From the IMG/VR virus record IMGVR_UViG_3300034018_003010: 64,000 nucleotides of DNA. One strand, given 5' to 3'. The stretch's first letter is position 1; each line of letters begins with the position of its first letter. Below are positions 1 through 44,751 of this stretch, piece after piece. This stretch comes from a virus. The translations under genes were made by a program, and so were the position numbers. The notes beneath the pieces were generated by a model. The model made no database searches, had not been told where the DNA came from, and was given only the letters and a program-made list of their open reading frames with translations.

Positions 1-1542
1 AATGTAGATATTGTTGCAAATTTTGAAGAAACACTTCCTATTGAAGACAATTCGTATGAAAACATATTTAGCAAATTTTGCATAGAACATATTTCTTGGA
101 GAAATGTTAAAAAATTTGTAAAGGAAGTTTACAGAATACTAAAAAACAACGGCAAGGTTGTTTTCATAACAGCAAATACAGAAAACCAAATGAAATGGGT
201 TTTAGAACACGATGAATGGGATGATGATTGTTCCTGCATAATATTTGGAGATCAAGATTATGCTGACAATACCCACAGAAATAGTTTAAACCCAAAACAT
301 GCGATTAAAATTTTGTCAGAAGTCGGATTTGAAAGCATAATTGTTTTACCTTTTGGAGAATTGAGAACAGACATGATCATAGAAGCAACAAAGCCTGAAA
401 ATGCACCTACACAATCACAAGAAAGAAAATCTCTTTTTGATAAGCACTACTTTAATGGCGGTGGCAAGGTAGGCGGATATGCATACGAAGGATATTGGGA
501 CTATCCAATACATTGGGTAACTTACGAAAAGATCATGGAATTAGAACCTAAGTCTGTTTTGGAAGTTGGATGTGCTAGGGGATACATTCTTAAAAAACTT
601 GAAGCTGAAGGAATTCCATGCAAAGGTCTTGAAATTTCAAGGCATTGCTATTTAACAAGAGTTACAGATGCCGTAATGGAATGGGATATTTGTCAATTTC
701 CTTGGCCATTTGAAGACAAGCAGTTTGATGTTTGCTATTCAATTGCTGTAATGGAGCATATTCCAGACGAATTTATTCCTAAAGTTTTAGCTGAAATTGA
801 CCGTGTAAGCCATCGTGGAATTCATGGTGTAGATTATGGCGAAAATGATGATGGCTTTGACAAAACCCATTGCTCTTTACATACCGAAGAATGGTGGCTT
901 GAAAAAACGCCTCCTACTCAAAAGCCTGTTGATAAAGAACTTATGGAACAAGGAAGTCTAGCTTTATCAATTCCATCTGGAGATGGCTCATTAAAGCTAA
1001 ATCTTGGAAGTTTTACAAATATGTACCACAATGGATGGATTAATATAGACATTGTTCCATTGCAACAATTTGCACAACAACATCAATATAAGTTTTTACA
1101 ACACGATTTTAAAAATCAATTACCATTTGGAGATGCTCAGGTTGACCTTATTTATAGCAGCCATATGCTTGAACATCTTACAAAAGAAGAGGGTATTTTG
1201 CTTTTGAGAGATTGTTATCGAGTTATGAAGAGCGGATCTGTAGCCAGATTCTTGGTTCCAGATGCTGAAAGACTTATAAATATGTACAAAAATAGCGAAC
1301 TTGGAATTTTTGATGAAATCAACGATGGTTGTGAGAAAACACCTTTCCAATCTGGCAAGCTTTGGGAACTTTTATTCTCTGGACATAAGATCGCTTATGA
1401 TTTTGAAGCATTGAAATTAATGGGCGAAGATGCTGGATTTAAAGTTGAAAAAAAGAACTTTAATGAAGGGCATGAGCAAATACTAAAAGAAACTATGGAT
1501 TGTCTACCAGAGATTAGTTTAATTGTCGAATTTAAAAAATAA
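1..1542 (+). CDS. Multi-domain class I SAM-dependent methyltransferase (5'-truncated by window; at least three MTase-like domains)
   Basis: The frame is open from base 1 (NVDIVANFEETLP...CIEHI...EVYRILKNNG). A second domain has VLEVGCARG...MEHI and a third has LNLGS...GWINID...SHMLEHL...YRVMKSG. Confidence 0.85.
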   Translation, partial: NVDIVANFEETLPIEDNSYENIFSKFCIEHISWRNVKKFVKEVYRILKNNGKVVFITANTENQMKWVLEHDEWDDDCSCIIFGDQDYADNTHRNSLNPKHAIKILSEVGFESIIVLPFGELRTDMIIEATKPENAPTQSQERKSLFDKHYFNGGGKVGGYAYEGYWDYPIHWVTYEKIMELEPKSVLEVGCARGYILKKLEAEGIPCKGLEISRHCYLTRVTDAVMEWDICQFPWPFEDKQFDVCYSIAVMEHIPDEFIPKVLAEIDRVSHRGIHGVDYGENDDGFDKTHCSLHTEEWWLEKTPPTQKPVDKELMEQGSLALSIPSGDGSLKLNLGSFTNMYHNGWINIDIVPLQQFAQQHQYKFLQHDFKNQLPFGDAQVDLIYSSHMLEHLTKEEGILLLRDCYRVMKSGSVARFLVPDAERLINMYKNSELGIFDEINDGCEKTPFQSGKLWELLFSGHKIAYDFEALKLMGEDAGFKVEKKNFNEGHEQILKETMDCLPEISLIVEFKK

Positions 1543-1567
1543 AATATATCAAAATTTGGTATTCGAT

Positions 1568-1575
1568 AATAAATA
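1568..1575 (+). promoter_or_regulatory. T4 late-promoter-like motif AATAAATA
   Basis: Lies 6 nt before ATG 1582 with no SD. The same motif and spacing recur before other structural genes, and a gp55-like sigma is encoded in the window. Confidence 0.6.
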
Positions 1576-1581
1576 TTAATT

Positions 1582-4500
1582 ATGCTAGGCGAATACCCAC
1601 AAATATCATTTAGAGTTCGACCCAAGTTTGATAATTTATATAATTATCCATTACCTGGAACTGATAGGGACCTTTTATGGTATCAACTATCAAAAGCCAC
1701 GGTTTGGGTAGATTATGTACCTTATGCAATGAAACAAGGAGATGAGTTTTCTCTTTATGGATGGCAAGCAATAGATGTTTACACAAGATATATTCTCGAA
1801 ACTCCTTACAAAGATAGAATATTAGAATGGACTTATTTTGGAAACCCTGTAGATTTACCAACAACAGCAAGAATAATATCAGATTTGCCAGCTCCATTTT
1901 GGCTTGTAAATACTAATTACGATTATCAAATACCGATTTCTGGGGGAGCAGCGCCTCTAACATGGTCTATTGCATCTGGATTTCTTCCATATGGAATGTA
2001 TTTAGACGAAATAACAGGAACTATTTATGGAACTCCAGCAATTGCAGACATATATGCATTTACAATAAAGGTAAAAGACAGTTCTCGTCCTCCAGCAATA
2101 GACAGCAGACCGTATTTAATTAGTATTGCTTCTGGCATAATAACGCCAACAGTTTATGAATTTCAAACATCAAACACCACTGCTTCAATATCTGGTGGAA
2201 TTTTAGCAAAATCTACCGCTGGAGATATTGTTTCTTTTTCTCCATTATATTCCACAACAACTCCGTCATCTACAACTATTAATGTTGGCGGAGTGCCTGT
2301 TTTTACAGCAACACATGATGCTTCTTACAATGGAACAACATTTACATTTATTCATAATGGCGTGTCTTATACTGCGACATGGGGATCGACAAATAATTTC
2401 GGAATTGTAACAATTTTAAATACTGGAGTTCCACAATCTATACCAGGTGGAATAACAGCAACAGGAATTGCTACAAATACATTGGCATACAGTCCGACAA
2501 GTGCTACAACAGGCGTTTCTTCGTCTACAGATATAACTATTAATGGAATTCCAGTATTAAACTTAGCTCACGATGCTATTTATAATGGTCAAACACTTAC
2601 ATTTGACTATTTTGGAGTGAAATATACTGCTACATTTGGAACAACAAATAATTTCGTAGGTCCAAATTTAACATACACAATAGGAGCAACAGGAGTTGCA
2701 GAATCTGCTCCTGGTGGAATAACAGCAACTGGCATCGCCACAAATTCAATAACATACACGCCGACAGCATTAACAACAGGAACTCCTTCCAGCACAATTG
2801 TTAATGTAGATGGCGTAAATGTTTTAACTTTAGCTCACGATGCTGTTTATAATGGCCAAACATTTACATTTGACTATTTTGGAGCCACCTACACAGCAAC
2901 TTACGGAATAACAAATAATCTACCAGCCGCTCCTGTAACATATGTAATTCCAACAACTGGAGTTGCAGGATCTGCTCCTGGAAATATTACAGCGACTGGA
3001 ATTGCTACAAATTCTATTTCTTATACTCCAACAAATACAACTACTGGAACTCCTTCTACAACAACAGTAACAATAGGCGGAGCAACTGTTTTAACTTTGG
3101 CTACCGATGCTATTTATAATGGACAAACATTTACATTTGATTATTTTGGAACAACTTATACTGGCACATTTGGAACAACAAATAGCTATCCAACACCTGC
3201 TACAACTACAACAACACCAGTTGCTGCAACTGCTACAATTTCTGCCACTGGCGTTCCGCAAACAATTCCAGGAAATATTACAGCAACTGGAATAATTGGC
3301 AATACCCTTACATATGCTCCAAACACTACAGTAACAGGCGTTACATCCAATACAACTGTTGTAATTGGAACAACAACAGTATTAAGTCTTGCACATGATG
3401 CTATTTATAATGGACAAACATTTACATTTGACTATTTTGGAACAACTTATACTCCAACATTTGGAACAATTAATACATATTCTGCAATACCGACAACTAC
3501 AACTACAACAAGCACAACGTATTCTCCGCCTACAACAACTACAGCAAGTCCTGCTACTACAACAAGTACAACGACAGTTTCTCCAATAACAACAACTACA
3601 ACTACTACAATAGTTCCAACAACAACTACAACTACTACGATAGTTCCAACAACAACTACAACTACTACGATAGTTCCAACAACAACTACAACTACTACAA
3701 TAGTTCCAACAACAACTACAACTACTACAATAGTTCCAACAACAACAACTACAACTACTACAATAATTCCAACAACTACAACTACATCTACTACATCTAC
3801 TACATCTGCTCCTACAACAAGTACTACTACTACAAGCACTACATCTACTACTACATCTACTACCACAAGCACAACTACAAGTACCACAACTACAACAACA
3901 ACTACTACAACTACCACACCAATTCCTTTGTGTTTATCAGATACAGAATCAGTAGTAGTTCTTAATTTGTTTGGACAAAAAGTATACACATTCGGAGGAT
4001 TGCTTGGATTCTTTGGTGTAAACACTGGTGTATATGTATTTACAGATGTTCCATCAACAGAACCACTTGCCTTCTTAAATGCTTCTGTAGCAAATGCTTC
4101 CTACACAGGAACAGTATTGGAATCTGTTGCTGCAGGCCCTGATGGAAACGTTTACAACTTCTACTCTGGCACAGTTACTTTGACTGTCACAGGAACATTC
4201 AATAGATTAAGCTATGCATCTCTTTATGATGGATACATGGGCGGACAAGACAATATTACATTCACAACATATTGTGTTTCTCCAACCACCACAACCACAA
4301 CTACAACTACAACAACCACCACAACAACTACCACCACAACCACAACTACAACAACTACACCGGCTCCAACTACAACAACTACAAGTACAACAACCACTAC
4401 TTCTGCTCCAACTACAAGTACAACAACTACTACTTCTGCTCCAACTACAAGCACAACAACCACTAGTACAACTAGCACTACAAGCACAACAACAACAACT

Positions 4501-7500
4501 GAACCTCCGTTCTATATGTTTGCAACTGGTTTCAATGGTTATGGAACGCTTGCTCAAAGCAATACAACAAATTCAAATGCTCTTCTTTATATTCCATCAA
4601 ATGGAACAGGATGGGCAGATATTTCTCGTTCTCCAGTAGCAAAACACGCTGCTGGAATAGCAGTAGACGGATCTTTGTTTGTGTGGGGCGCTAATGCTTA
4701 TGGAAACATAGGAGATGGTTCTAAAACAGATGCTAGTTCTCCAGTTCAAACATTGGCTGCTGGAACCAACTGGTCTTCTGTTTCAACTGGACTTTGGTTA
4801 ACAGCAGCTATTAATTCTTCTGGAAACCTATGGGTTTGGGGCGCAAATGCTTATGGTCAACTTGGAAATTCATCAACAACAGATCTAAGTTCTCCAATAC
4901 AGCTTGGAACAGATACTACATGGGCAAATATATCTTGTGGATATCAGTTTATGTCTGCTGTAAAAACAGACGGCACACTATGGTCATGGGGTAGAAATCA
5001 ATATGGTCAGCTTGCAACAAATAGCATAACAGATGCTACCTCGCCAGTACAATCAGTCTCTGCATCTACTGACTGGTATGAAACATATGCTTCTAAAGAA
5101 TTCATAATTGGACTAAAGAAAGACGGAACACTTTGGGGTTGGGGAAGAAACTCATATGGACAGCTAGGAACTGGAAACAAACTACCAGTATCTTCGCCAG
5201 TTCAAATAGCAGCAGGATCGACATGGAGTTCGGTATCTGTTGAGTCTGCATCTGTTATAGCAGTAAGAAGCGATAACACATTATGGTCATGGGGAGATAA
5301 CTCTAGTGGTCAATTTGGTAATGGAAATAGAGTAAATGTAAGCTCTCCAATACAAATTGGAGTAGATACAAATTGGTATAGAGTTGGAACTTCTCAAAGC
5401 GCAGTATTTGCTGTAAAGAAGGATGGAACACTATGGTCTTGGGGCGGCAATGCTTCTGGCGAATTGGGCGATAAGACAAATATAAATAGAAGCAGTCCTG
5501 TTCAAATATGTGTATACAATATAGCAACAGAACTAGATTGGGCAAAAATTGGTTCTGCTCAATCCACAATGTATTTGTTGAAGGAAACGATGCCTGTTCC
5601 AACAACAACTACTACTACAACAACTACAACCACAACAACTACTACAACAACTACAACAACTCCTGCTCCGACAACTACCACAACTACTACCACAACAACC
5701 ACTACAACAACCACAACAACGAGCACTACAACAACCACAACTACAAGCACAACCACAACTACATCAACTACAACTCCTGCGCCTATGAATGGCGGAGCAT
5801 TGTGGACATGGGGTTCTGCTCAAAACGGATCTATGGGAGATGGAACAACAGTTCACAGAAGCTCTCCTGTTCAAATTGATGCAAATAAAGTATGGACATC
5901 TGTAATTCCAAGTTCCTCCAACTATAACCTAGGTGTAATAAAGAACAACTACACTCTATGGGTGTGGGGTAGAAACAGCTACGGACAACTAGGATTAAAT
6001 TCAATTGCTGACGCAACAACACCAACAGAAGTTGGCGGATTGTGGTCACAAGCAATGTTTGGATTTAACTTCATGTTAGGAATTAAACTAGATAGCACAT
6101 TGTGGGCATGGGGAGATAATCAATATGGAACAACTTGCACAAATGTTCCAACAAGCACCCCAATTCAAATAGGAACAGAAGCTGCATGGTCTAGCGTATC
6201 TGCTGGAGGAAGCCATGCTTGCGGAATTAAGTCCGATGGAACACTTTGGTCATGGGGCTTGAATGCATGGGGTCAATTAGGACTTGGAGTATTGGGAAGC
6301 AAGCAAAGCCCTGTCCAAGTTGGATCGAATACAACATGGTCTACAATTGCATGTAATCTAAACAACACATTTGCAATTAAGACAGATGGAACATTGTGGG
6401 CTTGGGGATGGAACCTAAATGGTGAATTAGGCTTAGGAGATGTAAAAGGAAAATCTTCGCCAACCCAAGTTGGAACAAATACCACATGGTCAAGCGTAAG
6501 AGCAGGAATATCTAACTCATTGCTAGCAGTAAAGAGCGATGGCACACTATGGGGCGCTGGCAGACTTTATACTAACAATTCTGTTATAAACAGAAGCAGT
6601 CCAGTTCAATTTGGAACAGATACAAATTGGTCTAAGGCAGTTTCTCTTGGAGATAACACAATAGGTGCTATTAAGAGTGATGCCACAATGTGGACATGGG
6701 GCGTAAATGATGATGGAGCAGTACTAGGAACAAACAATGTATTTGATACATCTTCTCCAGTTCAAACAGCCGCAACAAATTACACATGGCTTGATATAGA
6801 TGGATATCTATCTGTTGCTGCTATTTCTGATCTAGAAATAACCACAACAACTACAACAAGTACTACTACTACAAGTACTACAAGCACAACCTCTACAACC
6901 TCTACAACTTCTACAACCTCTACAACTTCTACCACACCTGTTCCTGCATACTTGTATACTACTGGCAATTTTGGAGGATCAGCTTTCCAAAATGATATAG
7001 TTCTTAGAAGCAGTCTAACACAAGTAACATTAGGATCAAATACATGGATTGCAACAGGAACAGGATATATTCAGGGGTGCATGTTCGCAATAGACACACT
7101 TAATAATTTATGGGCTGCTGGCTATAACACTGGATTTGGCAATGCAGGAAAACTTGGAGATGGAACAACCATTAATAGAAGCAGCCCTGTTCAAATTGCT
7201 GGTTCTTGGAACCAAGTATCTGCTAGTCAGAATTCTGCAAGTGCAATTAAAACAGATGGAACACTTTGGGTTTGGGGACAAAACTCTTATGGAACAATAG
7301 GAGATGGAACAAATGTTAATAGAAGCAGTCCTGTTCAAGTATACGGTGGCGGAACATGGACATCTGTGGCAACTGGCTATACAACAACATGGGCTATTAA
7401 GAATGATGGAACACTATGGGGATGGGGAGACAACGATAGCGGAACTCTTTTAAATAAGCCCAGCACACTTAGCCCTGTTCAGCTTGATACAGGATCGTGG

Positions 7501-10500
7501 AAATATATTTACGCAGGAAGAAAATTCCACTTTGGAATAAAACAAGACGGAACATTGTGGGGTGCAGGCTCAAACAGCAACGGACAACTAGGTATTAATA
7601 ATTCGTTCAACACAAGCACTTTGACACAAATCTCAACTGGCGGAACATGGGTAAAAGTTTTTGGAAACTATGATAGTTCAATAGGCTTAAAAACAGATGG
7701 AACAATATGGGCTTGGGGATATAACCGAGTCGGAGTATTTGGAAATAATACGGAAGGACAAAGTGTAAGCAGTCCAGTTCAATCTATTGGAAGTGGCTAT
7801 GTTGATATGAATGGAAATTATGGTGGTGTTGCAGCAATCAAGAGTGATGGAACACTTTGGGCATGGGGATGGAACTCAGAAGGACCATTAGCAGATAAAA
7901 CAAAGGTTCATAGAAGCAGCCCTGTTCAAGTATACAAATTTGGAACAAGTGAAAACAGTTGGGTTAGACTTGGTTCTAGTATAAATGGAGTAACAGCATT
8001 TTCTTCTATAGTTCTTGCTCCTACAACTACAACTACAACTACAACTTCTACAACTACAAGTACAACCACTACAAGCACAACGAGTACAAGCACAACAAGC
8101 ACAACAAGTACAACACCTATTCCTGGCGAATTGTGGCTATGGGGTTCAAATGCAAATGGTGCAACATTACAGAACACAACAGCTGGCAATTCAACTTCGC
8201 CAAAACAAGAATTTACAGCTGATATTACATGGAAAACACCAACTGTAAATAGTGTTCTCACTCTTCCAATCGGAGCATGTATAAAGCAAGATGGAACACT
8301 TTGGACATGGGGTAGAAATGACTTCTATCAACTAGGTACAGGAAATACAATAAATAGAAGCAGTCCAGTTCAAACAGCAATAGGAGGAACAAATTGGGCA
8401 TCAATAGAATTCGGAAGCTCTGCAGCCTTTGCACTAAAAACTGATGGAACTCTATGGGGCTGGGGTAGTAATGGTTATTCTACTTTACTACAACCAAGCA
8501 CATTAACGAATCTATCAACCCCAGTTCAAATATTATCAGGAACAACATGGTCACAAATTGCATGCGGTTTAAATTTTGTTCTTGGTATAAAACCTGGAAA
8601 TACTTTATGGGGATGGGGTCAAAATTTCTATGGTCAGGTTGGAGATGGAACAGAAATAGACAGAAGTTCTCCAGTACAAATAGCAGGATCTTGGAGTTAT
8701 GTAAGCTGCGACTCTGACTCGTCTCTTGGTATCAGAACAGATGGAACACTATGGGGATGGGGTAAAAACAATCCTGGAAAACTCGGGAATATGTCAGAAG
8801 TAAATGCAAGTTCTCCAGTTCAAGTCATTACTGGTGGAACATGGAAAAAAGCTATAGTTATAAGTGAAGTAGCTGCGGGAATAAAAACTGATGGCACTTT
8901 ATGGCTATGGGGGCAAAATTTCGCTGGAGCACTTGGACAAAACGACAAAATTCACAGAAGTTCTCCAGTTCAAGTTATTACTGGAGGAACATGGAGTGAT
9001 ATTGGAATGGGTGTATCTGGTTCCATATGTGGCATAAAAACAGATGGAACATTGTGGGCTTGGGGATGGAACTCATACGGACAAATTGGCGATGGAACCA
9101 CAGTACATAGATCTTCACCAGTTCAAACATTGACAAAAGATAAACTTTGGATGAGACTGCTAAATCAAACATCCACATACGCTGGAGCTATTAGGCAATA
9201 CACTCCTTATGCTCTAAATTATGATGTAAGCACAGCAAGTGTCTCCAATACAACAATTGCAGATATTTCTGGATTAGAAAATAATGGCACAATGACATCT
9301 AGCGCAATGTTTAATCTCGGATGTCCAAATACACTTGGCTTCGATAGCACAAGAGAAATAACAACAACAATTTCTCAAAATAATCCGCAAGTTTACACAT
9401 TGTCTGCTTGGTTTAAAACAACCAGCGCAAGCGGCAAAAAGATTATTGGACACGAAAATGTTCAAACAGGTACTGGAGCCACAAGCTACAGTAGACATCT
9501 TTATATTGGAACAAATGGGCAGCTTTACTTTGCCACATCTGCAAATGGAGCAGGTTATACCATAACATCTTCAACCATAGTTTGTGATGGCGCTTGGCAC
9601 CATGCTGTAATATCTGCAAAATCAGGCGCACAAAGATTGTTTATTGATGGTGTGCTTGTTGGAAGCGATACAAAATCTACCGCAAACCCAGTAGGAGATA
9701 ACAATCCAACTGGCTGGTGGAGAATAGGTGGCTACAAAATAACTGGATGGGCAAACGCTTCGGATGGATACTTCACAGGCGATATAGGAAGAGCCGTAGT
9801 TTACAAGAATGCTTTGACAGATTTAGAAATAACAAGCCTATACGCTGCAGAATTGCCACTATTCAATGTAGCCAAATTTAGCTACACGGGAAGCTTGCAA
9901 ACATGGACAGTTCCAAGTGGAGTTTACAACATCGACGCAACCATAATAGGTGCTAAGGGTGGAGATAACACCACAGGAGGATCTGTTGGTGGTGGTGGCG
10001 CAATCATGTATACAAATATAGATGTAACGCCTGGTCAAACTCTATACTTGGTAGTCGGCGGATATCCTGGCACTAGCGAAACACCTGCTTATGGATTTGG
10101 TGGTGCTGGACAAGCCCCATCTTCAGGACTTCAAAGAACTGGCGCTGCTGGCGGTGGCTTATCTGGCATATTTACAAGTGATTCGTTCATTCCAAGCACA
10201 GTCATAGCTATAGCTGCTGGCGGTGGTGGTGCAAACGGCAGATCATCTGCTACTGGTGGTGGAAACGGTGGCAATCCAACCGGCAGCAACGGTGGAGAAT
10301 ACAATGGCAGCTTTGGAGCAAATGCTGGTTGGGGCGCAAATCAATCACAACCCGGAAACGCCGGTTCGCAATTTGACGGATATGTAACACTCCCACAACA
10401 AGGAGCATATTTGTATGGCGGTGCAGGATCGAAGTTTGAAGGCACCGGCGGAGGAAACCAAGGTGCAGGTGGCGGCGCAGGCTACTACGGTGGCGGTGGT

Positions 10501-14524: not shown

Positions 14525-14550
14525 AAAATTAAAAATATTAATATTAATTT

Positions 14551-14580
14551 AATTCCCAGCCTAGGCTGGGAATTTTTTTT
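14551..14580 (+). terminator. Intrinsic terminator
   Basis: Perfect palindrome aattcccagcctaggctgggaatt followed by a T run, after stop 14524. Confidence 0.85.
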
Positions 14581-14588
14581 AAATGGCG

Positions 14589-14596
14589 AATAAATA
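14589..14596 (+). promoter_or_regulatory. Late-promoter-like motif AATAAATA
   Basis: Lies 6 nt before ATG 14603, just after a terminator; no SD. Confidence 0.6.
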
Positions 14597-14602
14597 CTTA
14601 TT

Positions 14603-20446: not shown

Positions 20447-20491
20447 TATTAAACTAAAACTGAAGTCCGTTGTTTTCTTGGCTCAAGGATC
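20443..20491 (-). mobile_element. Degenerate copy of the ~50-bp IS200/IS605-end-like mini-element
   Basis: The reverse complement gatccttgagccaagaaaacaacggacttcagttttagtttaatatcaa keeps GATC, GAGCCAAGAA, GACTTCAG and the terminal TCAA of the copies at 46995 and 50457. Confidence 0.55.
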
Positions 20492-20498
20492 AAAATCT

Positions 20499-20533
20499 AA
20501 AAACCTCTAGAGATAGTTCTCTGGGGGTTTTTT
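20499..20533 (+). terminator. Intrinsic terminator
   Basis: Hairpin aaaaacctctagaga-tagt-tctctgggggttttt with a U-tract. Confidence 0.75.
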
Positions 20534-20553
20534 GCTTAAAGCATATATATTTT

Positions 20554-20826
20554 ATGTCAAATTCATATCCACAAATTACATTTTTAGTAGACCCAGATAT
20601 TTCTGAAATTGATTCTTATTCAATGCCAGATGTGAATAGAGAAAATCTTGTTTATCAATTAAATTCAAAGATATATTGGATTGAAAATTTTTCTTATAGT
20701 GTAAAAAAAGGAGATTCTTTTACATTGTATGGAGAAGAAGCACTAAGAGTTTATAAAAATTATATACAAAACAATACAAATGGAAATATTTTAAAAGTAA
20801 CATATTATGGTGTTCCAGAAATTTAA
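20554..20826 (+). CDS. Stand-alone 90-aa version of the shared N-terminal (putative virion-anchor/decoration) domain
   Basis: MSNSYPQITFLV...W...KGDSFTLYGEEALRVYKNYI...ILKVTYYG aligns with the N-termini of 1582, 14603 and 20894. The start is moved from the 20470 TTG to ATG 20554, which is preceded by CATATATA. Confidence 0.8.
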   Translation: MSNSYPQITFLVDPDISEIDSYSMPDVNRENLVYQLNSKIYWIENFSYSVKKGDSFTLYGEEALRVYKNYIQNNTNGNILKVTYYGVPEI

Positions 20827-20893
20827 AGTTCTAATCAGCTATTAATTAACTCAATCTTGTTAAAAATTTTACTTCTTGTCGATAAATAAAATT

Positions 20894-23800
20894 ATGGCAC
20901 AAGATTATCCACAAATAACATTCGTTGTAAACAATGTAAATATGCAGGAAATTTTAAAATATCCTCCTGTAGATCAAAATTATGACAATGTCATAAATCT
21001 ATTAAAACAAACTACATTTTGGATTTTATATGTTCCATATGAATTAAGACATGAAGATTGCTTTACACTTTATGGAAAAGAAGCTTTAGAAGTTCAAAAA
21101 ATTTATATAACAGACGTACAAGAAAACCTAAGAAAACTTGAAATAGGTTACTATGGCATACCAACAACTGATTGCACATGCAAATGCTTAATACAAACAG
21201 ATCCAGCAAGCATAAATATTCAGCAGGTTGGCACCTCTTTATCGGTAGCAATGTCAGCTACTGGTGGCAAATCTCCTTATACATATTCTCTTGATTCTGG
21301 AGTTTTTCCTCCTGGTGTAACCATTTCTTCAACTGGAGTTATAAGTGGAACACCGACTGCTTCAGGGTCTTACGAATTTTCTATTTTAGTAAGTGATGGA
21401 ATTAACAGCGCAATAAAAACTTATAGAATAAAAGTAAAACCTCTAATCGCATTTGCACCCGCATCATTGCCAGCAACAACTCAATCTATTGCTTATAATC
21501 AAACAGTTACAGCATCTGGCGGACTTGCTCCATATGCATACAGTATTATTTCAGGATCATTGCCAACTGGATTGAGTCTAAATTCAGCAACTGGAGCCAT
21601 TACTGGAACTCCTACAACTCCAGGAACTTATAATTTCACTATAGAAGCAACCGATGGAAACAGTGATATAGGTAGCAAAGCATATACAGTAACAATAAAT
21701 AATCCTGTATTAATATCTACAGCAACACTGCCAGACACAACGGAAGGGGAAGTATATAGCCAAACTGTTTCTTCAACAGGAGGAACAGGAGCTGTAACAT
21801 TCTCCGTTTCTTCTGGTTCTTTGCCAACAGGACTAAGCCTAAATGCTGCAACAGGAGTAATAAGCGGAACTGTTACTGTAGCCGGAACTTATAATTTCAC
21901 AATAACAGGAACTGATACAGTAGGAGCAACAGGAAACAAAGCCTACTCTGTTGTTATAAATCCACCAGTAGCGGTTACTCCCTCAACTTTACCAGACACA
22001 ACAATAACAATACCATATTCACAAACAGTAACTGCGACTGGCGGCACAGGCACAAAGACATATGCAGTAACATTTGGATCTTTACCAACAGGACTAAGCT
22101 TAAATACCGCTACCGGACTAGTAAGCGGAACTCCAATTACTGCAGGTCTTTACAATTTTGCCATAACAGCAACCGACACAGTAGGAGCAACGGGAAATAC
22201 TATTTATAATGTAAATATTAATCCTGCCATAACATTAGCTCCAGCAACTCTACCAGCAACAACAGAAAATGTAGCTTATAGCCAAACTGTCACAGCATCT
22301 AACGGAACTGGAACAAAGACATATACATTATCTTCTGGTTCTTTGCCAACAGGACTAAGCTTAAACGCCGCAACAGGTGTTATAAGTGGCACACCTACTG
22401 CTGCTGGAAGCTATACTTTTGATATAACAGCAACAGATACTGTGGGGGCAACAGGAACAATAACTTACACAACAACAATAAATGCAGCCATGACTATGGC
22501 TCCAGCTTCTTTGCCAACAACAACACAAGGAGTTGCTTATAACCAAACTGTTACAGCATCTAATGGCACAGGAGCAAAGACATATACTGTAACCTCTGGA
22601 AGCTTACCAACAGGACTAAGCCTAAATGCTTCAAGCGGTGCAATAACAGGAACTGCAACTGCTGCTGCTACTTACAACTTTACAATTACAGCCACAGATA
22701 CTGTAGGCGCAACTGTAAGTCAGCCATACACAGTATTAGTAAATGTTCCACTTTCAATATCTCCTGCAACTCTACCAGATACAACAATAAATGTTGCTTA
22801 CAGCCAAACAATAACAGGAACAGGTGGAACTGCTCCTCTTGCTTATTCAGTATCTGCTGGTTCTTTGCCAGCAGGATTAAGTATAAATGCCACAACGGGG
22901 GCAATAACTGGAACTCCAACTGCAACAGGCGCTTCGAGTTTCACAATTACTGTAACAGACGCAAATGGTGCGACAGCAAGCCAAGCATATACAGTAACAA
23001 TTAATGCTGCAGTTACAGTATCTCCAGCAACTCTACCAGATACAACAATAAATGTTGCATACAGTCAAACAGTATCCGCTTCTAATGGAACAGGAGCTAA
23101 GACATTCTCAGTAACTTCTGGTTCTCTACCAACAGGATTAAGCTTAAACGGTGCATCTGGTGTTATAAGTGGAACACCAACGGCTACAGGAACATCTAAT
23201 TTCACAATTACAGCTACAGATACAGTAGGAGCAACAGGAAGTCAAGCTTATACCGTTGTTATAAACCCAGCAGTTTCAATTACAACTGCAACTCTACCAG
23301 ATACAACAATAAATGTTGCTTACAACCAAACCGTTGCTGCAACAGGTGGTACAGGAGCAAAGACATTCTCAGTAACTTCTGGAAGCTTACCAACAGGATT
23401 AACCTTAACAGGCGCCTCTGGTGTTATAAGCGGAACTTCTACTGCTGCAGCAACATACAACTTCACAGTCACAGCTACCGATACAGTAGGAGCAACAGGA
23501 AGCCAAGCCTATAGCGTTGTTGTAAGCGGAGCTCTTTCAATATCTCCTGCAACATTACCAGACACAACAATAAATACTGCTTACAGTCAGACAATAACAG
23601 CATCAGGTGGAACAGCTCCTATTACTTATTCTGTTTCTGCTGGTTCATTGCCAACTGGCTTAAGCCTAGATGCCAATACTGGTGTAATAAGCGGAACTCC
23701 AACAAGTGCTGCGACATCAAACTTTACAATTACAGCTACAGATGCTTCTTTGGCAACAGCAAGCCAAGCTTACTCAGTCACAATAAACCCAGCTATTTCT

Positions 23801-25468
23801 GTATCGCCAGCAACACTACCAGACACAACAATAAATGTTGCCTACTCACAGACAGTAACAGCCTCCAATGGTACTGGAGCCAAGACATACTCTGTAACAT
23901 CTGGTTCTCTACCAACAGGATTAAGCCTAACAGGAGCTTCTGGTGTTATAAGCGGAACTCCAACTGCTACAGGAACATCAAACTTCACAATCACAGCTAC
24001 CGATACCGTTGGAGCAACAGGAAGCCAAGCTTACTCAGTCACTATTAATAGTGCTGTTTCAATTACAACAGCTACTTTGCCAGACACAACAATAAACACG
24101 GCTTATTCTCAAACTGTTTCTGCAACAGGAGGAACTGGAGCCAAGACATTCTCCGTAACTTCTGGTTCTCTACCAACAGGATTAAGCCTAACAGGAGCTT
24201 CTGGCGTTATAAGTGGCACACCAACAAGTGCTGCAACATACAACTTCACAATAACAGCTACCGATACCGTTGGAGCAACAGCAAACCAAGCTTACACAGT
24301 TGTTATAAATTCAGCAGTTTCAATTACAACAGCAACACTTCCAAATCCCGTTGTTGGAACTGCCTATAACGAAACTGTTGCTGCAACAGGAGGAACTGGG
24401 GCTAAGACATTCTCTGTTACTGTTGGATCTTTGCCAGCAGGATTAAGCCTAGCAGGAGCATCTGGTGTTATAAGTGGAACTCCTACAACTACAGGAGCCG
24501 TTTCTTTCACAATTACAGCTACCGATACCGTTGGAGCTACAGGCAGCCAAGCTTACACAGTAACAGTACAAGCAGCAGCAACAACAACTACCACACCCGC
24601 ACCTACTACCACAACTACTACCACAACTACTACTACAACCACGCCTACACCCACAACAACTACTACCACAACCACACCTGTTCCAACCACAACAACTACC
24701 ACACCCGCACCTACAACCACAACAACTACCACACCCGCACCTACAACCACAACAACTACCACACCCGCACCTACAACCACAACAACTACCACACCCGCAC
24801 CTACAACAACTACAACCACACCAGTTCCAACTACCACAACAACAACTCCCGCACCTACAACAACTACAACCACACCAGTTCCAACTACCACAACAACTAC
24901 AACAACCACGACAACTACACCTGCTCCTAGCTGCATAGTTGTAGACACAGGTAACACAAGCGATATGACTCACGCACAGCTTGCAAGCCCTGCAGATGGT
25001 ATCTCTTACAGCAATAACTCTGTTGCAGGAACAACCACTACAACAACACCCGTTCCAACAACTACAACAACAACTACACCGGCTGGTGGGGCAACACCAA
25101 TAAGTGGTGGAGCAGGTTGCTTGACAGCGACAGATATGAATTCAATTGGTATAGCAAATAAATATTTAATATCTATAGATGATACAAATCAATACTGGTA
25201 TAATATTAATGTATCCAAAGCTGTTTGGTCTGTTAAAAAAATATACATAAATACAACAGATACAATAAATCTAGGATGGATCGGCAACGACAGTTGTACA
25301 GATCAAAATGACTATTATGGTACAAATACTTGGTCTAGCGGAGTAGAAATTGCAACTATGCCTTGGACAATTGATGATCCATTGTCTAACAATGGAACAT
25401 TTAAAATTTGGATAATGTTACCATCAGGTGCTAGCGCAGCTTCTTATGAACTTTGGATAGACGATTAA
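20894..25468 (+). CDS. Large virion surface protein C: shared N-domain, 13 putative-Ig (He_PIG-like) repeats, Pro/Thr linker, C-terminal domain
   Basis: Repeated ~87-aa unit SGSLPTGLSL..ASGVISGTPT..GTYNFTITATD; MAQDYPQITFVV start preceded by GATAAATA. Confidence 0.85.
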   Translation: MAQDYPQITFVVNNVNMQEILKYPPVDQNYDNVINLLKQTTFWILYVPYELRHEDCFTLYGKEALEVQKIYITDVQENLRKLEIGYYGIPTTDCTCKCLIQTDPASINIQQVGTSLSVAMSATGGKSPYTYSLDSGVFPPGVTISSTGVISGTPTASGSYEFSILVSDGINSAIKTYRIKVKPLIAFAPASLPATTQSIAYNQTVTASGGLAPYAYSIISGSLPTGLSLNSATGAITGTPTTPGTYNFTIEATDGNSDIGSKAYTVTINNPVLISTATLPDTTEGEVYSQTVSSTGGTGAVTFSVSSGSLPTGLSLNAATGVISGTVTVAGTYNFTITGTDTVGATGNKAYSVVINPPVAVTPSTLPDTTITIPYSQTVTATGGTGTKTYAVTFGSLPTGLSLNTATGLVSGTPITAGLYNFAITATDTVGATGNTIYNVNINPAITLAPATLPATTENVAYSQTVTASNGTGTKTYTLSSGSLPTGLSLNAATGVISGTPTAAGSYTFDITATDTVGATGTITYTTTINAAMTMAPASLPTTTQGVAYNQTVTASNGTGAKTYTVTSGSLPTGLSLNASSGAITGTATAAATYNFTITATDTVGATVSQPYTVLVNVPLSISPATLPDTTINVAYSQTITGTGGTAPLAYSVSAGSLPAGLSINATTGAITGTPTATGASSFTITVTDANGATASQAYTVTINAAVTVSPATLPDTTINVAYSQTVSASNGTGAKTFSVTSGSLPTGLSLNGASGVISGTPTATGTSNFTITATDTVGATGSQAYTVVINPAVSITTATLPDTTINVAYNQTVAATGGTGAKTFSVTSGSLPTGLTLTGASGVISGTSTAAATYNFTVTATDTVGATGSQAYSVVVSGALSISPATLPDTTINTAYSQTITASGGTAPITYSVSAGSLPTGLSLDANTGVISGTPTSAATSNFTITATDASLATASQAYSVTINPAISVSPATLPDTTINVAYSQTVTASNGTGAKTYSVTSGSLPTGLSLTGASGVISGTPTATGTSNFTITATDTVGATGSQAYSVTINSAVSITTATLPDTTINTAYSQTVSATGGTGAKTFSVTSGSLPTGLSLTGASGVISGTPTSAATYNFTITATDTVGATANQAYTVVINSAVSITTATLPNPVVGTAYNETVAATGGTGAKTFSVTVGSLPAGLSLAGASGVISGTPTTTGAVSFTITATDTVGATGSQAYTVTVQAAATTTTTPAPTTTTTTTTTTTTTPTPTTTTTTTTPVPTTTTTTPAPTTTTTTTPAPTTTTTTTPAPTTTTTTTPAPTTTTTTPVPTTTTTTPAPTTTTTTPVPTTTTTTTTTTTTPAPSCIVVDTGNTSDMTHAQLASPADGISYSNNSVAGTTTTTTPVPTTTTTTTPAGGATPISGGAGCLTATDMNSIGIANKYLISIDDTNQYWYNINVSKAVWSVKKIYINTTDTINLGWIGNDSCTDQNDYYGTNTWSSGVEIATMPWTIDDPLSNNGTFKIWIMLPSGASAASYELWIDD
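24691..24810 (+). repeat. 30-bp tandem repeat x4 encoding TTTTPAPTTT
   Basis: Units of aacaactaccacacccgcacctacaaccac are directly visible. Confidence 0.9.
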
Positions 25469-25479
25469 AGGAAAAAATT

Positions 25480-26163
25480 ATGGCACAACCAACAATTTAT
25501 GCTAATATAGACTGTGATGGACAAGTAGAAGTCAAAGTAAATAATGACACCGGCTATCCTTGCACCATTATAACAAATACAGGCGTAAATGAATCTATTC
25601 CAAGCACCGGAACTGATGTTTATAGAAATTATAATTTAACAAGCTCAGATTGGGTAAAAGTTGTTGCTGCTCAAGACGCAACTATTGCTGCTAATAAATT
25701 AACTGGAACAATTAAATATATTACTTCTGTAACTACCACTCCTGCTCCGACTACAACCACAACAACTACAACACCGCCTGCAGGAAATGCATTGCCAGCA
25801 GGCGGAGCAGATTGCGACAATAATACAAATTGGCCATCCTCAGATAATACAAAATACCAAGTAACATTCCCAGATACGACTACCGAGTGGACTTATTACT
25901 ATGCTGGTGTAGATACTAAAAAACTATATATGTCGGTTGTAGGAGATCCAACTACTCCAATTTCCACTGGCACAGACAGTGTAAAAGTATGTAGATGTTC
26001 CGATGGAACCTTCCCATGCTTTTTTGATGCTTGCAGTTCGCCAAATGGACCTAGTCTTTTGAGCGGATTCGATATGAGTGCAGCAACTTCAGGAAAATTC
26101 TCAATTCAAGCTAATAATGCCGCACTTACTGGAATAGCATTTGATATTTGGATTGACAATTAA
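25480..26163 (+). CDS. Small Thr-linker protein whose C-terminal domain resembles that of 20894
   Basis: SD AAGGA precedes ATG 25480. AGGADC...KYQV...KKLY...FDIWIDN compares with SGGAGC...KYLI...KKIY...YELWIDD. Confidence 0.7.
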   Translation: MAQPTIYANIDCDGQVEVKVNNDTGYPCTIITNTGVNESIPSTGTDVYRNYNLTSSDWVKVVAAQDATIAANKLTGTIKYITSVTTTPAPTTTTTTTTPPAGNALPAGGADCDNNTNWPSSDNTKYQVTFPDTTTEWTYYYAGVDTKKLYMSVVGDPTTPISTGTDSVKVCRCSDGTFPCFFDACSSPNGPSLLSGFDMSAATSGKFSIQANNAALTGIAFDIWIDN

Positions 26164-26165
26164 AC

Positions 26166-26199
26166 AAAAAAAGCCCCGTTTAATAACGGGGCTTTTTTT
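26166..26199. terminator. Bidirectional intrinsic terminator
   Basis: aaaaaaagccccgtt-taat-aacggggcttttttt lies between convergent genes. Confidence 0.9.
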
Positions 26200-26216
26200 G
26201 TTTAAACTTTTAAACT

Positions 26217-27095
26217 CTATTTGGCTTCATCTGGAACATCGGTCAAATCCTTATACTTTTCAAAAGCATCTGGATGGACTTCCAACACTCTTACCTTAGC
26301 TCTTTCAACAAAATCCTTTGGTTGGTTCTTCAAGAACCAATTAGCTACAGTCTCTGGATTCTTTCCAGTCTCAAAGTAAGCAATCATATAATTGTAAATC
26401 TTATCAATGATATCCAAACGATATGTGATAGGCTTGCTTCTCAAGAATCTGTGAATCCAACCCAAAGCCGTATGAAGCTTTACCTTGCCACCATTCTTGC
26501 GAACAAGTTCGTGGACATAACCTTCTTCTCCAGCAAAGCCAGAGAAGTTAGGACTAAATCCTGGCCAATGCTCCTTCTTCATCAAAAACATTGCAGTTCC
26601 ATGCATTGGAATCTCAGAAACAGGAGGCAATGGATTCTTTGTGTTCCAAATTCCAAAGAAATCACCACGCCACTTTGGGTCCATATGGGTGGCAATAACA
26701 TCCTTGTTTTCATTCAACAAAGGACCACACCACATGTCCTTGCCAATAAAATCACCATTGATTCCATTCATAATGTAATCAATTGCACCAGCCTGCAAAA
26801 TAACATGGCTGTCTAGCAATAATACATATTCGCCATCAGCATGTTCAAAAACGCTGTTCTTGGCATGTGCTGGTCCCTTTTCCTTTGGAGCATGGACATA
26901 CTTGGCTCCACTCAAAGCACAAAGATTTTCCAAAGACTCTGTCTTCTTTGGAAGATCATCAATCATCAAAAGCTGAATATCTGGACAAGTTCTCGAATTA
27001 CCAGTATGATACATTCTCAAGCAAGATGCTGTCCAAAAAGCACCCTCAATATCATCATGGCAAGCCCAACCAATAGTTAATTTATATTGCGACAT
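26217..27095 (-). CDS. GT2 (GT-A fold) glycosyltransferase
   Basis: Motifs LMIDD, GPAHAKN, ADGEYVLLLDSH and FAGEEG; SD AAGGAG precedes ATG 27095. Confidence 0.8.
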   Translation of the reverse strand: MSQYKLTIGWACHDDIEGAFWTASCLRMYHTGNSRTCPDIQLLMIDDLPKKTESLENLCALSGAKYVHAPKEKGPAHAKNSVFEHADGEYVLLLDSHVILQAGAIDYIMNGINGDFIGKDMWCGPLLNENKDVIATHMDPKWRGDFFGIWNTKNPLPPVSEIPMHGTAMFLMKKEHWPGFSPNFSGFAGEEGYVHELVRKNGGKVKLHTALGWIHRFLRSKPITYRLDIIDKIYNYMIAYFETGKNPETVANWFLKNQPKDFVERAKVRVLEVHPDAFEKYKDLTDVPDEAK

Positions 27096-27153
27096 TTTTT
27101 GCTCCTTTACTATAATCATTATAGCAACAAAAATATATTTTAAGGAAATAATT

Positions 27154-27885
27154 ATGTCAAAGCCTGGTATTTCTTGTTATTGCAGCACTTTTGGAAGACC
27201 AGTAGGTTTAGTAGAAAACTCAATTCAATGCTTTTTAGATCAAGATTATGACGGACCAAAAGAATTAGTTATATTAAATGACCTAAATGTTCAAGAACTT
27301 GTTTTTGATCATCCAGAAGTAAGAATAATAAATCATCCAGAAAGAATAAAACCACTAGGCAAAAAATTTAATGATAATATATTACTTTGCAAGTATGATA
27401 TATTAGCTTGCTGGGAAGATGATGATGTTTTTCTCAAAAATAGGCTTTCTTACAGCTTCGAACATATGAAAAATGGCATTTTTCATACCCCACAAGCTTT
27501 TTTTGAACGTGGCATAAAAGACATCATATTATCTCAAAACATTTTTCATTCCACCCACATGTTCACAAGAGAGTTGTTTGATAAAGTTGGTCGATATACA
27601 GAAGCCGATCAATGTAGCATCGATGTTTCTATTATGGAAAAATTCAGAAAAGAACTTGGACACTATCAACAAGACATGGATGTAAAAGATAGATGGTATA
27701 TTTATGTTTGGGGAGGAGCTGGATCATACCACGGCTCAGGATGGGGACCTTCAAATGAAAACATTTCAGATTCAGCAGCACAAATAGTAGAAATGCAAAT
27801 TGAACAAGGCCATGTAAAAACTGGAAAAATTGTACTTGAGCCAAAATTAAGATACAATTTTTATGAGTATCTTCCAAAAGAATAA
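27154..27885 (+). CDS. GT2-like glycosyltransferase
   Basis: Motifs STFGRP, FLDQDY..PKELVILND, LGKKFN and ACWEDDD (DxD motif). Confidence 0.8.
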   Translation: MSKPGISCYCSTFGRPVGLVENSIQCFLDQDYDGPKELVILNDLNVQELVFDHPEVRIINHPERIKPLGKKFNDNILLCKYDILACWEDDDVFLKNRLSYSFEHMKNGIFHTPQAFFERGIKDIILSQNIFHSTHMFTRELFDKVGRYTEADQCSIDVSIMEKFRKELGHYQQDMDVKDRWYIYVWGGAGSYHGSGWGPSNENISDSAAQIVEMQIEQGHVKTGKIVLEPKLRYNFYEYLPKE

Positions 27886-27918
27886 CTATATTATTTTCAT
27901 CCAAAGAAAGGTAAAAAA

Positions 27919-28770
27919 ATGTTACTATCAGAAAAATATTTGGCAGAATCAGTTAACGCTAAAGGAGATCTATCAGAACACCTTTATACAATTAAGAAGT
28001 ATGCGGAAAAATGCGAACACATTACAGAACTAGGTGTTCGCTGGGTCATAAGTACTTGGGCACTGCTTGCCGGAAAGCCAAAAACACTAAATTCTTTTGA
28101 CGTAATTCATTATATTTATCACGGAGTTCCACCCAATAAAATTATTGATGCCGCAAAAGAACAAGGAACTGATTTTAATTTCTTTGAAGAAAATGTACTT
28201 TGTACTGATAAGATTGTTCCAACAGATTTGTTATTTATAGACACTTTACATAGCTACAAGCAATTAAAACTAGAACTTTACCTACATGGAAATAAAGCAA
28301 GAAAATATATAATTATTACAAATACTGTTACTTATGGAAATAGAAATGAAGGACCAGTTTTGTCAGAAAAGTTAGATGGAGAAGCCCTGCATGTATTTAA
28401 TAATCTACAAGACAAGCAAGGTGTAATGACTGCCATTAAAGAATTCGTTGAAGAAAACTCAGAATGGCGAGTCAAGGAATTCTTCAAGAACTGCAATGGT
28501 TTGTGCGTCCTAGAAAGAATCCCCGTCTCTCCAAGCGGATTGGCAGTAACAGGAACATCAATGAGCACCACTTTTACAGGAGTTGCTAACAATGCCCCCG
28601 TTGTTAATAATACCCATGTTGAACAACCCGCTCCTGTACCAGTATTTGTTACGCAACAACCAAACAATCAAAATTCTACAAACAAGCTAATAATAGCAGG
28701 ACTTGTGGGGTTTTGCTTCACCGTAACAGCAGCAGCGGTAGTAACAGCAGTTTACTTCGCAACTCGTTAA
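27919..28770 (+). CDS. Class I SAM methyltransferase (Methyltransf_24-like) with a C-terminal linker and hydrophobic helix
   Basis: Motifs ITELGVR, DLLFIDTLHSYKQL and NCNGLCVL; C-terminal LIIAGLVGFCFTVTAAAVVTAVYF. Confidence 0.75.
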   Translation: MLLSEKYLAESVNAKGDLSEHLYTIKKYAEKCEHITELGVRWVISTWALLAGKPKTLNSFDVIHYIYHGVPPNKIIDAAKEQGTDFNFFEENVLCTDKIVPTDLLFIDTLHSYKQLKLELYLHGNKARKYIIITNTVTYGNRNEGPVLSEKLDGEALHVFNNLQDKQGVMTAIKEFVEENSEWRVKEFFKNCNGLCVLERIPVSPSGLAVTGTSMSTTFTGVANNAPVVNNTHVEQPAPVPVFVTQQPNNQNSTNKLIIAGLVGFCFTVTAAAVVTAVYFATR

Positions 28771-28789
28771 TTTTAAATTAAATGCTATT

Positions 28790-28822
28790 TTAGGGGCGAG
28801 AAAATCTCGTCCCTATTTTTTT
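28790..28822. terminator. Intrinsic terminator between convergent genes
   Basis: taggggcgag-aaaat-ctcgtcccta followed by a T run. Confidence 0.7.
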
Positions 28823-29498
28823 AAAATATTTTTAAAGCAGGATTTTGCTGCCTCATAACCCAAAAATTAGATTGAGTAGAATTGTAAGTCTTATTATATC
28901 TACGACAAAAATCATTCACAGCGTCTCTAACACCCGTCCAATCAATATCATGCCCAAAGAATACTCCATTCTCATTTAAAAGAGGATAATAAGATTCTAA
29001 ATCAGACATTACACTTTTGTAAGTGTGATCTCCATCAATATAAATCATATCAAATTTAACATTATGAAAAGAAAGAACGTCCGCCGCTAATGTAGAAGGC
29101 AAAGGAATAGGCGTTATATAATTTTCTAATTTTGAATGACAAACATTTGCCAAAAAATTATAATAAAATGAAGGATACCCGTTTACCGTGTTAAACTGCC
29201 TGTCCGGACTGGGATAAGTATAAAACTCAACCGAACCAAGCCATGTGTCTATACAAAAAATATGACCGTCTATATTGTATTTTTTTAAAGCATTAGCCAT
29301 ATTAATTGCAGATTGTCCCTTATATGTTCCAACTTCCGCAATTAAACTTGGCCTATTTGTTTTTATTAAATTTTCAAATACAATATCGTTTCCACCCCAC
29401 CCAAAAACTTCATATGGATAAGATGAAAAATTAAAGCCGCTGTATGTGTCTTCACGCAGCAGCTTTTTTCTTATACTTTGAATAAATTCACTTGCCAA
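28821..29498 (-). CDS. Class I SAM methyltransferase (Methyltransf_24-like)
   Basis: Motifs IAEVGTYKGQS, CIDTW, FDMIYIDGDHTY and GHDIDW.GV..AV. Confidence 0.85.
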   Translation of the reverse strand: MASEFIQSIRKKLLREDTYSGFNFSSYPYEVFGWGGNDIVFENLIKTNRPSLIAEVGTYKGQSAINMANALKKYNIDGHIFCIDTWLGSVEFYTYPSPDRQFNTVNGYPSFYYNFLANVCHSKLENYITPIPLPSTLAADVLSFHNVKFDMIYIDGDHTYKSVMSDLESYYPLLNENGVFFGHDIDWTGVRDAVNDFCRRYNKTYNSTQSNFWVMRQQNPALKIF

Positions 29499-44673: not shown

Positions 44674-44696
44674 TAATTAATTTATTTTTAAAATTT

Positions 44697-44730
44697 GTAC
44701 TCCTGCACATTAAATAATGTGCAGGAGTAC
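44697..44730. other. Perfect 15-bp inverted repeat between the two tube genes (terminator/processing hairpin)
   Basis: gtactcctgcacatt-aaat-aatgtgcaggagtac. Confidence 0.8.
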
Positions 44731-44751
44731 TTTCATTATAAAGGTATTCAA

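Follow-up and report, generated by a model that had tools for sequence, protein, structure and literature searches.

What would a phage gain from keeping glycosyltransferase and methyltransferase genes beside a row of giant, threonine-rich proteins? This question is raised by the left part of a 64,000-nucleotide stretch of viral DNA (IMG/VR virus record IMGVR_UViG_3300034018_003010), which is analyzed here as a whole and referred to as the window. A previous interpretation (the sequence-only reading) held that the enzymes build O-glycosylated and O-methylated fibers on the virion. The best explanation of the locus is that it belongs to a huge, T4-like myophage, and that the first 26 kb of the window constitute an operon of giant modular fiber-type proteins carrying long poly-Thr or Pro-Thr linkers. 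The family of the glycosyltransferase encoded next to this operon, GT2a (26217-27119, minus strand), probably glycosylates poly-Thr tracts, because the same family adjoins poly-Thr proteins in many phages and bacteria.

GT2a is a soluble, single-domain glycosyltransferase of the GT-A type with 300 amino acids. It matches the Pfam family PF00535 (Glycos_transf_2) with 34.7 bits, above the cutoff of 23.3, and its sequence contains no stretch that looks membrane-spanning. A D103-x-H105 motif and a distal histidine, H223, are invariant in 28 homologs. The AlphaFold model of the enzyme (predicted local distance difference test, pLDDT, of 93) was compared with known structures by two aligners. In a Foldseek search of the PDB, 30 of the 30 matches listed down to rank 47 are catalytic domains of polypeptide N-acetylgalactosaminyltransferases (ppGalNAc-Ts), with a best E of 7e-14. 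With the second aligner (VIA, 48,161 representative chains), mGalNAc-T1 (Z 20.6) and TgGalNAc-T3 (Z 19.6) rank first, with a root-mean-square deviation of 3.4 over 258 residues, followed by WrtF, B4GALNT1, K4CP, RmlT and TarS (Z ≤18.0). As modeled, the fold of GT2a is closest to that of the mucin-type polypeptide GalNAc-transferases. In Pfam, no match to Glyco_transf_7C, which covers the Gal/GalNAc-T motif region, was found, and a C-terminal GF[AG]GEE motif, considered as a counterpart of the WGGENxE motif of GalNAc-transferases, was discarded after a profile search gave no such link. A tblastn search of 50,697 GenBank-derived phage records at E 1e-5 returned no match to GT2a. Among the viral entries of BFVD, a single family member, from an uncultured phage, scores far above all other matches.

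The association of this family with poly-Thr proteins was examined in the best 80 of 412 confirmed IMG/VR stretches with GT2a-profile matches, each taken with 10-kb flanks (individual loci are given below as L numbers). An open reading frame (ORF) containing poly-Thr is present in 31 of these 80 viral loci. Of the 44 such ORFs, 42 end at most 3 kb from the glycosyltransferase gene, nearly all of them directly upstream, and 43 lie on its strand (p 1.7e-17 for the linkage, binomial, against the available flank). After dereplication at 80% glycosyltransferase identity, 19 of 21 ORFs are within 3 kb (p 7e-8); of the 32 lineages that remain, 14 are positive. The bias is also visible among ORFs of at least 300 amino acids in the same loci, as a segment with 80% or more Ser/Thr occurs in 14.5% of those near the glycosyltransferase gene versus 1.0% of those farther away. 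As controls, 13 loci around sheath homologs contained no poly-Thr, and five related records, 507 kb in total, contained no run of ten Thr codons. The proteins found beside the enzyme are diverse. At L078 the gene order is tail fiber, poly-Thr ORF and glycosyltransferase, and at L031 the gene ahead of the poly-Thr ORF is weakly tape-measure-like (E 1.3e-4). In the close relatives L050 (4940-8212), L055 (4489-8211) and L057 (3378-8216), Cys-rich STIG1-like modules are placed between poly-Thr runs, and the length of this mucin-like protein varies from 1090 to 1612 amino acids.

Bacteria show the same linkage. When prokaryotes were scanned with one genome for each species, 321 GT2a relatives were obtained, of which 78 loci at 31-39% identity were examined. 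Poly-Thr ORFs are present in 23 of them, and 30 of the 31 ORFs lie at most 3 kb from the glycosyltransferase gene (p 4e-7). These loci span Alpha- and Gammaproteobacteria, Acidobacteriota, Desulfobulbaceae and Chloroflexota; at a looser threshold, the cultured strains Oricola indica JL-62, Desulfofustis glycolicus DSM 9705 and a Bradyrhizobium diazoefficiens strain also qualify. In 15 bacterial loci the neighbor is a small protein which combines a twin-arginine (RR) signal with a poly-Thr tail and has a conserved cleavage-like site (KPVV..V.PAHA). Its gene is located directly upstream of the GT2a-like gene, for instance in L222 (6525-6905), L270 (6713-6937), L274 (6162-6977) and L293 (6579-6995), and at times in three tandem copies. 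A second type of neighbor, found in at least two loci, has a PqqD-like N-terminal part. Proteins in which such a part is followed by an RR signal-like stretch and then by poly-Thr are encoded at L217 (6816-7721), L243 (4345-5969, three tandem copies) and L286 (5677-6519).

The neighbors of the GT2a family, namely RCC1/Ig fibers, a LamG protein in L027, STIG1-like proteins and small exported proteins of bacteria, have nothing in common but poly-Thr. Because they are alike in this tract alone, the glycosyltransferase and the poly-Thr protein are best understood as a pair of enzyme and acceptor, which is the main ground for the reading preferred here. The sequence-only reading had suggested looking for co-occurrence of the enzymes with poly-Thr proteins across relatives, and for GT2a the outcome is positive in phages and bacteria alike. 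A wider proposal, which we put forward tentatively and would not yet bet on, is that GT2a represents a widespread family, so far undescribed, of polypeptide Thr-O-glycosyltransferases from prokaryotes and phages, akin in structure to the eukaryotic mucin-type GalNAc-transferases. Such enzymes would act in the cytoplasm on phage fibers and on bacterial proteins later exported by the twin-arginine pathway, and would constitute a prokaryotic counterpart of mucin-type O-glycosylation.

In the window itself, poly-Thr tracts (15-residue windows with a Thr content of 60% or more) are confined to ORFs between 1582 and 26163 and sum to about 900 residues. The ORF coordinates and the giant poly-Thr proteins claimed for this region were confirmed, with tracts in five ORFs, all on the plus strand. 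The first, g1 (1582-10767), encodes 3061 amino acids with five tracts (372 residues). In order, it comprises an N-terminal module shared with other proteins of the operon, a He_PIG domain, five repeats of about 90 residues, poly-Thr linkers and a Cys-bounded module; then come four RCC1 propellers, LamG-like and Gly-rich domains and, at the end, blade one of a fifth propeller. The remainder of that split propeller opens g2 (10769-14524, within an open frame at 10757-14524; about 1250 amino acids), which continues with its only poly-Thr linker, a sixth propeller, and LamG-like and Gly-rich domains. In g3 (14603-20446; 1947 amino acids), the shared N-terminal module, a He_PIG domain, poly-Thr linkers (five tracts, 342 residues) and a Cys-bounded module accompany three RCC1 propellers. 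The protein encoded by g4 (20876-25468; 1530 amino acids) consists of the N-terminal module, 13 He_PIG Ig domains, Pro-Thr linkers (two tracts, 143 residues) and a C-terminal domain, and its homolog in L215 likewise has poly-Thr. The last one, g5 (25453-26163; 236 amino acids), contains one Pro-Thr linker tract and a C-terminal domain. Among the fiber genes there is also a plus-strand ORF of 118 amino acids (20470-20826) that lacks a poly-Thr tract; it has no match in Pfam or PHROG, and the ESM Atlas returned nothing useful for it.

The RCC1/WD40_RLD matches in the giant ORFs are strong (E 1e-194, 4e-78 and 1e-115), and the total of nine propellers given by the sequence-only reading is reached when the stretches between linkers are counted. 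Its 15 Ig domains hold with a qualification: Pfam reports 13 He_PIG stretches in g4 (E 8.5e-168), and one extra copy each in g1 and g3 was read from the translations, unreported by Pfam. The LamG assignment is weak, as the Laminin_G match (E 6e-4) is under the Pfam cutoff. At the DNA level, tandem repeats of 9-120 bp underlie the poly-Thr tracts, and the linkers are mucin-like in the sense of long Thr/Pro/Ser-rich tandem repeats of varying length. To judge from gene position and domain type, the giant proteins would sit on the virion, where they may serve in adhesion and shielding. The fiber operon is separated from the convergent GT2a gene by what reads in the sequence as a bidirectional intrinsic terminator (26167-26199), made of an A-run, a GCCCCG...CGGGGC hairpin and a T-run.

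The boundary between g1 and g2 had been taken as a split within a single gene. A split exists, but the two parts are cistrons of their own. The g1 gene ends with TAA and, one base on, the ATG of g2 follows behind an AGGTGG ribosome-binding site (10757-10771). This TAA-n-ATG junction is kept in L294 (1955-1970), with 73% identity across a 901-base query around it, which rules out a frameshift or pseudogene. Hence g2 is a separate cistron coupled to g1. As the two form a genuine cistron pair, one RCC1 propeller is divided over two polypeptides, and the g1 and g2 proteins may dock via this shared propeller.

Beyond GT2a, the enzymes that had been listed downstream of the fibers as two GT2 glycosyltransferases and two Methyltransf_24-like enzymes were confirmed as two GT-A glycosyltransferases and two enzymes of O-methyltransferase type. 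The second glycosyltransferase, GT2b (27154-27885, plus strand), scores on its own 18.0 bits against Pfam Glycos_transf_2, under the cutoff, and is assigned through its family. A profile of 17 homologs matches heparosan synthase, SpsA and AvpGT (E 3e-12 to 9e-10), and a DDD motif at residues 89-91 is invariant in the family. The product of the next gene (27919-28770, plus strand) has no match in Pfam and no sequence match in the PDB. Its model displays a cation-dependent O-methyltransferase fold over residues 1-205 (pLDDT >90), followed by a disordered tail and a hydrophobic C-terminal helix, and Foldseek (E 4e-8) relates it to CCoAOMT, norbelladine O-methyltransferase and the MeT1 entry of M. 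hassiacum. The last enzyme (28821-29498, minus strand) belongs to Methyltransf_24 (PF13578, E 1e-19, 71.8 bits), resembles CmcI/TylF, and is a candidate sugar O-methyltransferase. A profile comparison between both methyltransferases is weak (probability 15%).

The co-travel of these genes has been followed in the same sets of loci. GT2a and GT2b occur together in 19 of the 80 viral loci and in 19 bacterial ones, and the trio of GT2a, GT2b and the 27919-type enzyme in 13 of the 80 viral loci. The Methyltransf_24 enzyme is connected by gene fusion. In L027 (11293-13758) and L028 (11895-14399), a protein of 821-834 amino acids joins a GT1, a GT2b-like GT2 and a Methyltransf_24 domain in this order, and the fused gene has as neighbors a GT2a homolog and a LamG protein with poly-Thr. 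Such a fusion speaks for the Methyltransf_24 enzyme acting on the same glycan. A further enzyme had been placed in the cassette by the sequence-only reading, the multi-domain methyltransferase upstream of the fibers. It is indeed present (1-1542, plus strand, open at the 5' end) and comprises three S-adenosylmethionine-dependent methyltransferase domains (Methyltransf_11, E 5.5e-30 in three stretches). Nevertheless, no homolog of it was found in any of the 80 viral GT2a loci, and its membership of the cassette is unsupported.

On these grounds we consider it somewhat more likely than not that the poly-Thr linkers are O-glycosylated in the cytoplasm by a small module in which GT2a starts, GT2b extends and the two O-methyltransferase-type enzymes methylate. 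GT2a would attach the first sugar to linker threonines in the host cytoplasm, GT2b would lengthen the glycan, and both methyltransferases would cap it with methyl groups. The resulting mucin-like poly-Thr and Pro-Thr linkers would space the binding domains, that is, the RCC1 propellers, the He_PIG Ig arrays, and the LamG-like and Gly-rich domains. The domains, the linkers, the enzyme folds and the conserved linkage of the GT2a family to poly-Thr tracts are established here. That GT2a acts on the linkers, the sequence in which the enzymes work and the sugar are what we infer. In favor of this reading are the fold of GT2a, its linkage to poly-Thr, the co-travel of GT2b and the 27919-type enzyme with it, and the fusion of Methyltransf_24 to a GT2b-like enzyme. 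The glycosylation module originally envisaged is thus supported in part; the place given in it to the upstream methyltransferase is unsupported, and the cassette is not self-contained.

A number of observations weigh against linker glycosylation as set out above. The fold margin of GT2a over other GT-A enzymes is just about 2 Z units; a profile search of the PDB with its C-terminal half, at E up to 10, retrieved no GalNAc-transferase; and a ricin-type lectin domain is absent from the single-domain chain. Because of these three features, GT2a is not a GT27 member on present evidence; it may work like one. Concerning distribution, about half of the viral lineages lack a poly-Thr neighbor. The converse test, performed on 118 viral stretches chosen solely for a run of 12 Thr codons, found the GT2a family in four of them (directly beside the tract in three and about 2 kb off in one); these four cases count in favor of the pairing, but most viral poly-Thr loci are without the family. 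A general rule by which poly-Thr ORFs neighbor a glycosyltransferase of any kind is unsupported, as 5 of 135 neighbors versus 2 of 129 controls represent no enrichment. Moreover, in a close relative of the phage, poly-Thr genes are found at several distant genome sites, and the cassette is therefore not self-contained.

Other observations of this sort lend themselves to a different explanation, in which the poly-Thr tracts are plain extended spacers and the module acts on host envelope polysaccharide, on a lipid-linked glycan or on DNA, lying by the fiber genes since accessory genes collect there. This is the strongest of the alternatives, and we regard it as a possible but unlikely account. 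It had been recognized from the outset that glycosyltransferase genes in relatives devoid of Thr-rich proteins would speak against the glycosylation of linkers, and such cases have been found in part. Around the closest GT2a relatives (53-72% identity; L014-16 and L021-26), no poly-Thr ORF is found up to a distance of 10 kb, two of these records having poly-Thr elsewhere, and L048 retains the glycosyltransferase together with the C-terminal domain of its neighbor (117 amino acids, 7916-8269), the mucin-like part being gone. With regard to the partner enzymes, the hydrophobic C-terminal tail of the 27919 protein could hint at a membrane-linked target, polysaccharide synthases are the nearest likeness of GT2b, and the PHROG match of the Methyltransf_24 enzyme bears a DNA methyltransferase label. 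In addition, the Methyltransf_24 gene is immediately preceded, on its own strand, by a Mom-like gene. On the other hand, plain spacers do not account well for Ser/Thr-rich ORFs being about 15 times commoner near the glycosyltransferase than farther away in the same loci, nor for the recurrence of the linkage in bacteria, where the poly-Thr proteins are small, exported and not fibers. Furthermore, an enzyme acting on envelope or lipid-linked substrates would sit uneasily with a GT2a that has no membrane-spanning-looking stretch and whose top fold matches act on polypeptides.

The product of the Mom-like gene (29538-31295, minus strand) is a protein of 585 amino acids with DUF7487 repeats and a Mom-family domain, and is likely a DNA-modification enzyme.

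Even if the module does glycosylate structural proteins of the phage, the sugars might be attached off poly-Thr, either to Ser/Thr of folded domains or to other fibers. In L015 and L016, GT2a adjoins a protein of 459 amino acids in which the N-terminal module is combined with an RCC1 propeller and poly-Thr is missing, as would be expected in such a case. We nonetheless hold this version to be improbable, given that poly-Thr is the sole feature that the neighbors share across phages and bacteria. Finally, that the giant proteins are not virion parts at all, and are instead secreted or kept inside the cell during infection, would fit the N-terminal module shared by g1, g3 and g4, which has no match in Pfam or PHROGs and no protein match in the 50,697 phage records, but it is very improbable in view of the location of the block in the tail/neck region, the lack of any visible signal-like N-terminal stretch in the giant sequences, domain types that are usual for phage fibers and decorations, and the poly-Thr ORFs that follow a tail fiber gene in L078 and the weakly tape-measure-like gene in L031.

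If linker threonines are indeed the acceptors, the closest parallel to GT2a is provided by the eukaryotic ppGalNAc-Ts of family GT27, which start mucin-type O-glycosylation and are its best structural match by both aligners. The likeness extends to acceptor-like neighbors made of Thr/Pro-rich tandem repeats, and the DxH motif and conserved distal His of GT2a may correspond to the Mn2+ ligands of GT27 enzymes. However, sequence identity to GT2a is 12-16%, GT2a has neither the ricin-type lectin domain nor a membrane anchor, and it would act in the bacterial cytoplasm, whereas GT27 enzymes reside in the Golgi. SunS, a GT2 enzyme of glycocin synthesis, is a soluble GT-A glycosyltransferase whose gene lies beside that of its peptide substrate, and its fold matches GT2a with Z 12.6; in the bacterial loci, small precursor-like proteins are similarly encoded next to GT2a-like genes. 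The target of SunS is a single Cys or Ser of a hairpin peptide that is folded, and the enzyme has an extra peptide-binding domain. The presumed sites here are, in contrast, long Thr runs. Among eukaryotic viruses, Mimivirus and the chloroviruses decorate surface fibrils or capsid proteins by means of virus-encoded glycosylation machinery with different enzyme sets, and giant-virus glycosyltransferases in BFVD match GT2a weakly (E 2e-9 or worse).

In phages, O-glycosylation of virion proteins by phage-encoded enzymes has been established for the mycobacteriophages Che8 (gp110), Corndog (gp38) and Myrna, according to two reports (PMC12363180, PMC13445384, citing Freeman et al. 2023). In these phages, phage-encoded glycosyltransferases act on the phage's own virion proteins inside the host cell, which is the situation proposed here. 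The differences are threefold. GT2a is unmatched in the 50,697 phage records, where Che8, Corndog and Myrna are presumed to be present; the candidate acceptors are giant fiber proteins with internal poly-Thr linkers as opposed to capsid proteins; and methyltransferases accompany the glycosyltransferases in the present locus. A search of full-text literature found no account, for phages or for bacteria, of an enzyme resembling GalNAc-transferases that is paired with poly-Thr proteins, a null search that leaves absence unproven.

The observations point to another family of enzymes, whose presumed acceptor, the poly-Thr tract, is recognizable. To our knowledge, glycosylation by phages of their own virions has so far been documented mainly in mycobacteriophages. 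If the link between enzyme and substrate is true, mucin-like sugar coats on phage fibers could be predicted from sequence, bacterial production of mucin-type glycoproteins would gain candidate enzymes, one could study where GT27-type enzymes originated, and a class of exported bacterial poly-Thr glycopeptides would emerge.

As for the element that carries the locus, structural genes in the right half of the window encode a T4 gp15-type sheath stabilizer, a tail sheath, a baseplate hub and a head-tail adaptor, alongside ribonucleotide reductase and CTP synthase, and the block of fiber and enzyme ORFs adjoins the neck, sheath, tube and baseplate genes. The closest sheath protein of a cultured phage has at most 37% identity to that of the window, and cultured phages gave no near DNA match. 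A relative with about 80% DNA identity is found on a 271-kb contig, a second contig of the same bin running beyond 131 kb. Given the divergent sheath, the lack of a near DNA match among cultured phages and these large contigs, the element is a very large uncultured myophage. The relative corresponds to contigs C1 and C5 of the 3.8-Mb bin G013 (loci L215 and L294), which bears the label Acidimicrobiaceae as a putative host label; every run of 15 Thr codons in the bin falls on these two contigs.

Some minor features of the window complete the description. Two tail-tube paralogs lie side by side at 44008-44673 and 44695-45378 (phrog_4542, E 4e-25 and 2e-21, respectively), and a sigma-70 region 2 domain is present in a small protein encoded within the tail gene region (45638-46183, minus strand). 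The T4 late-promoter-like word TATAAATA appears 19 times versus 7.3 expected, and 0 of 100 shuffles reached 19. An ORF at 51073-52071 that had been considered GlmS-like contains a class-II amidotransferase domain alone and lacks the SIS domain, which rules out this assignment. Lastly, in the large subunit of ribonucleotide reductase (54610-57201, minus strand) the barrel domain falls into four stretches and residues 276-324 form a LAGLIDADG-like segment, a combination which suggests that the gene may carry an intein.

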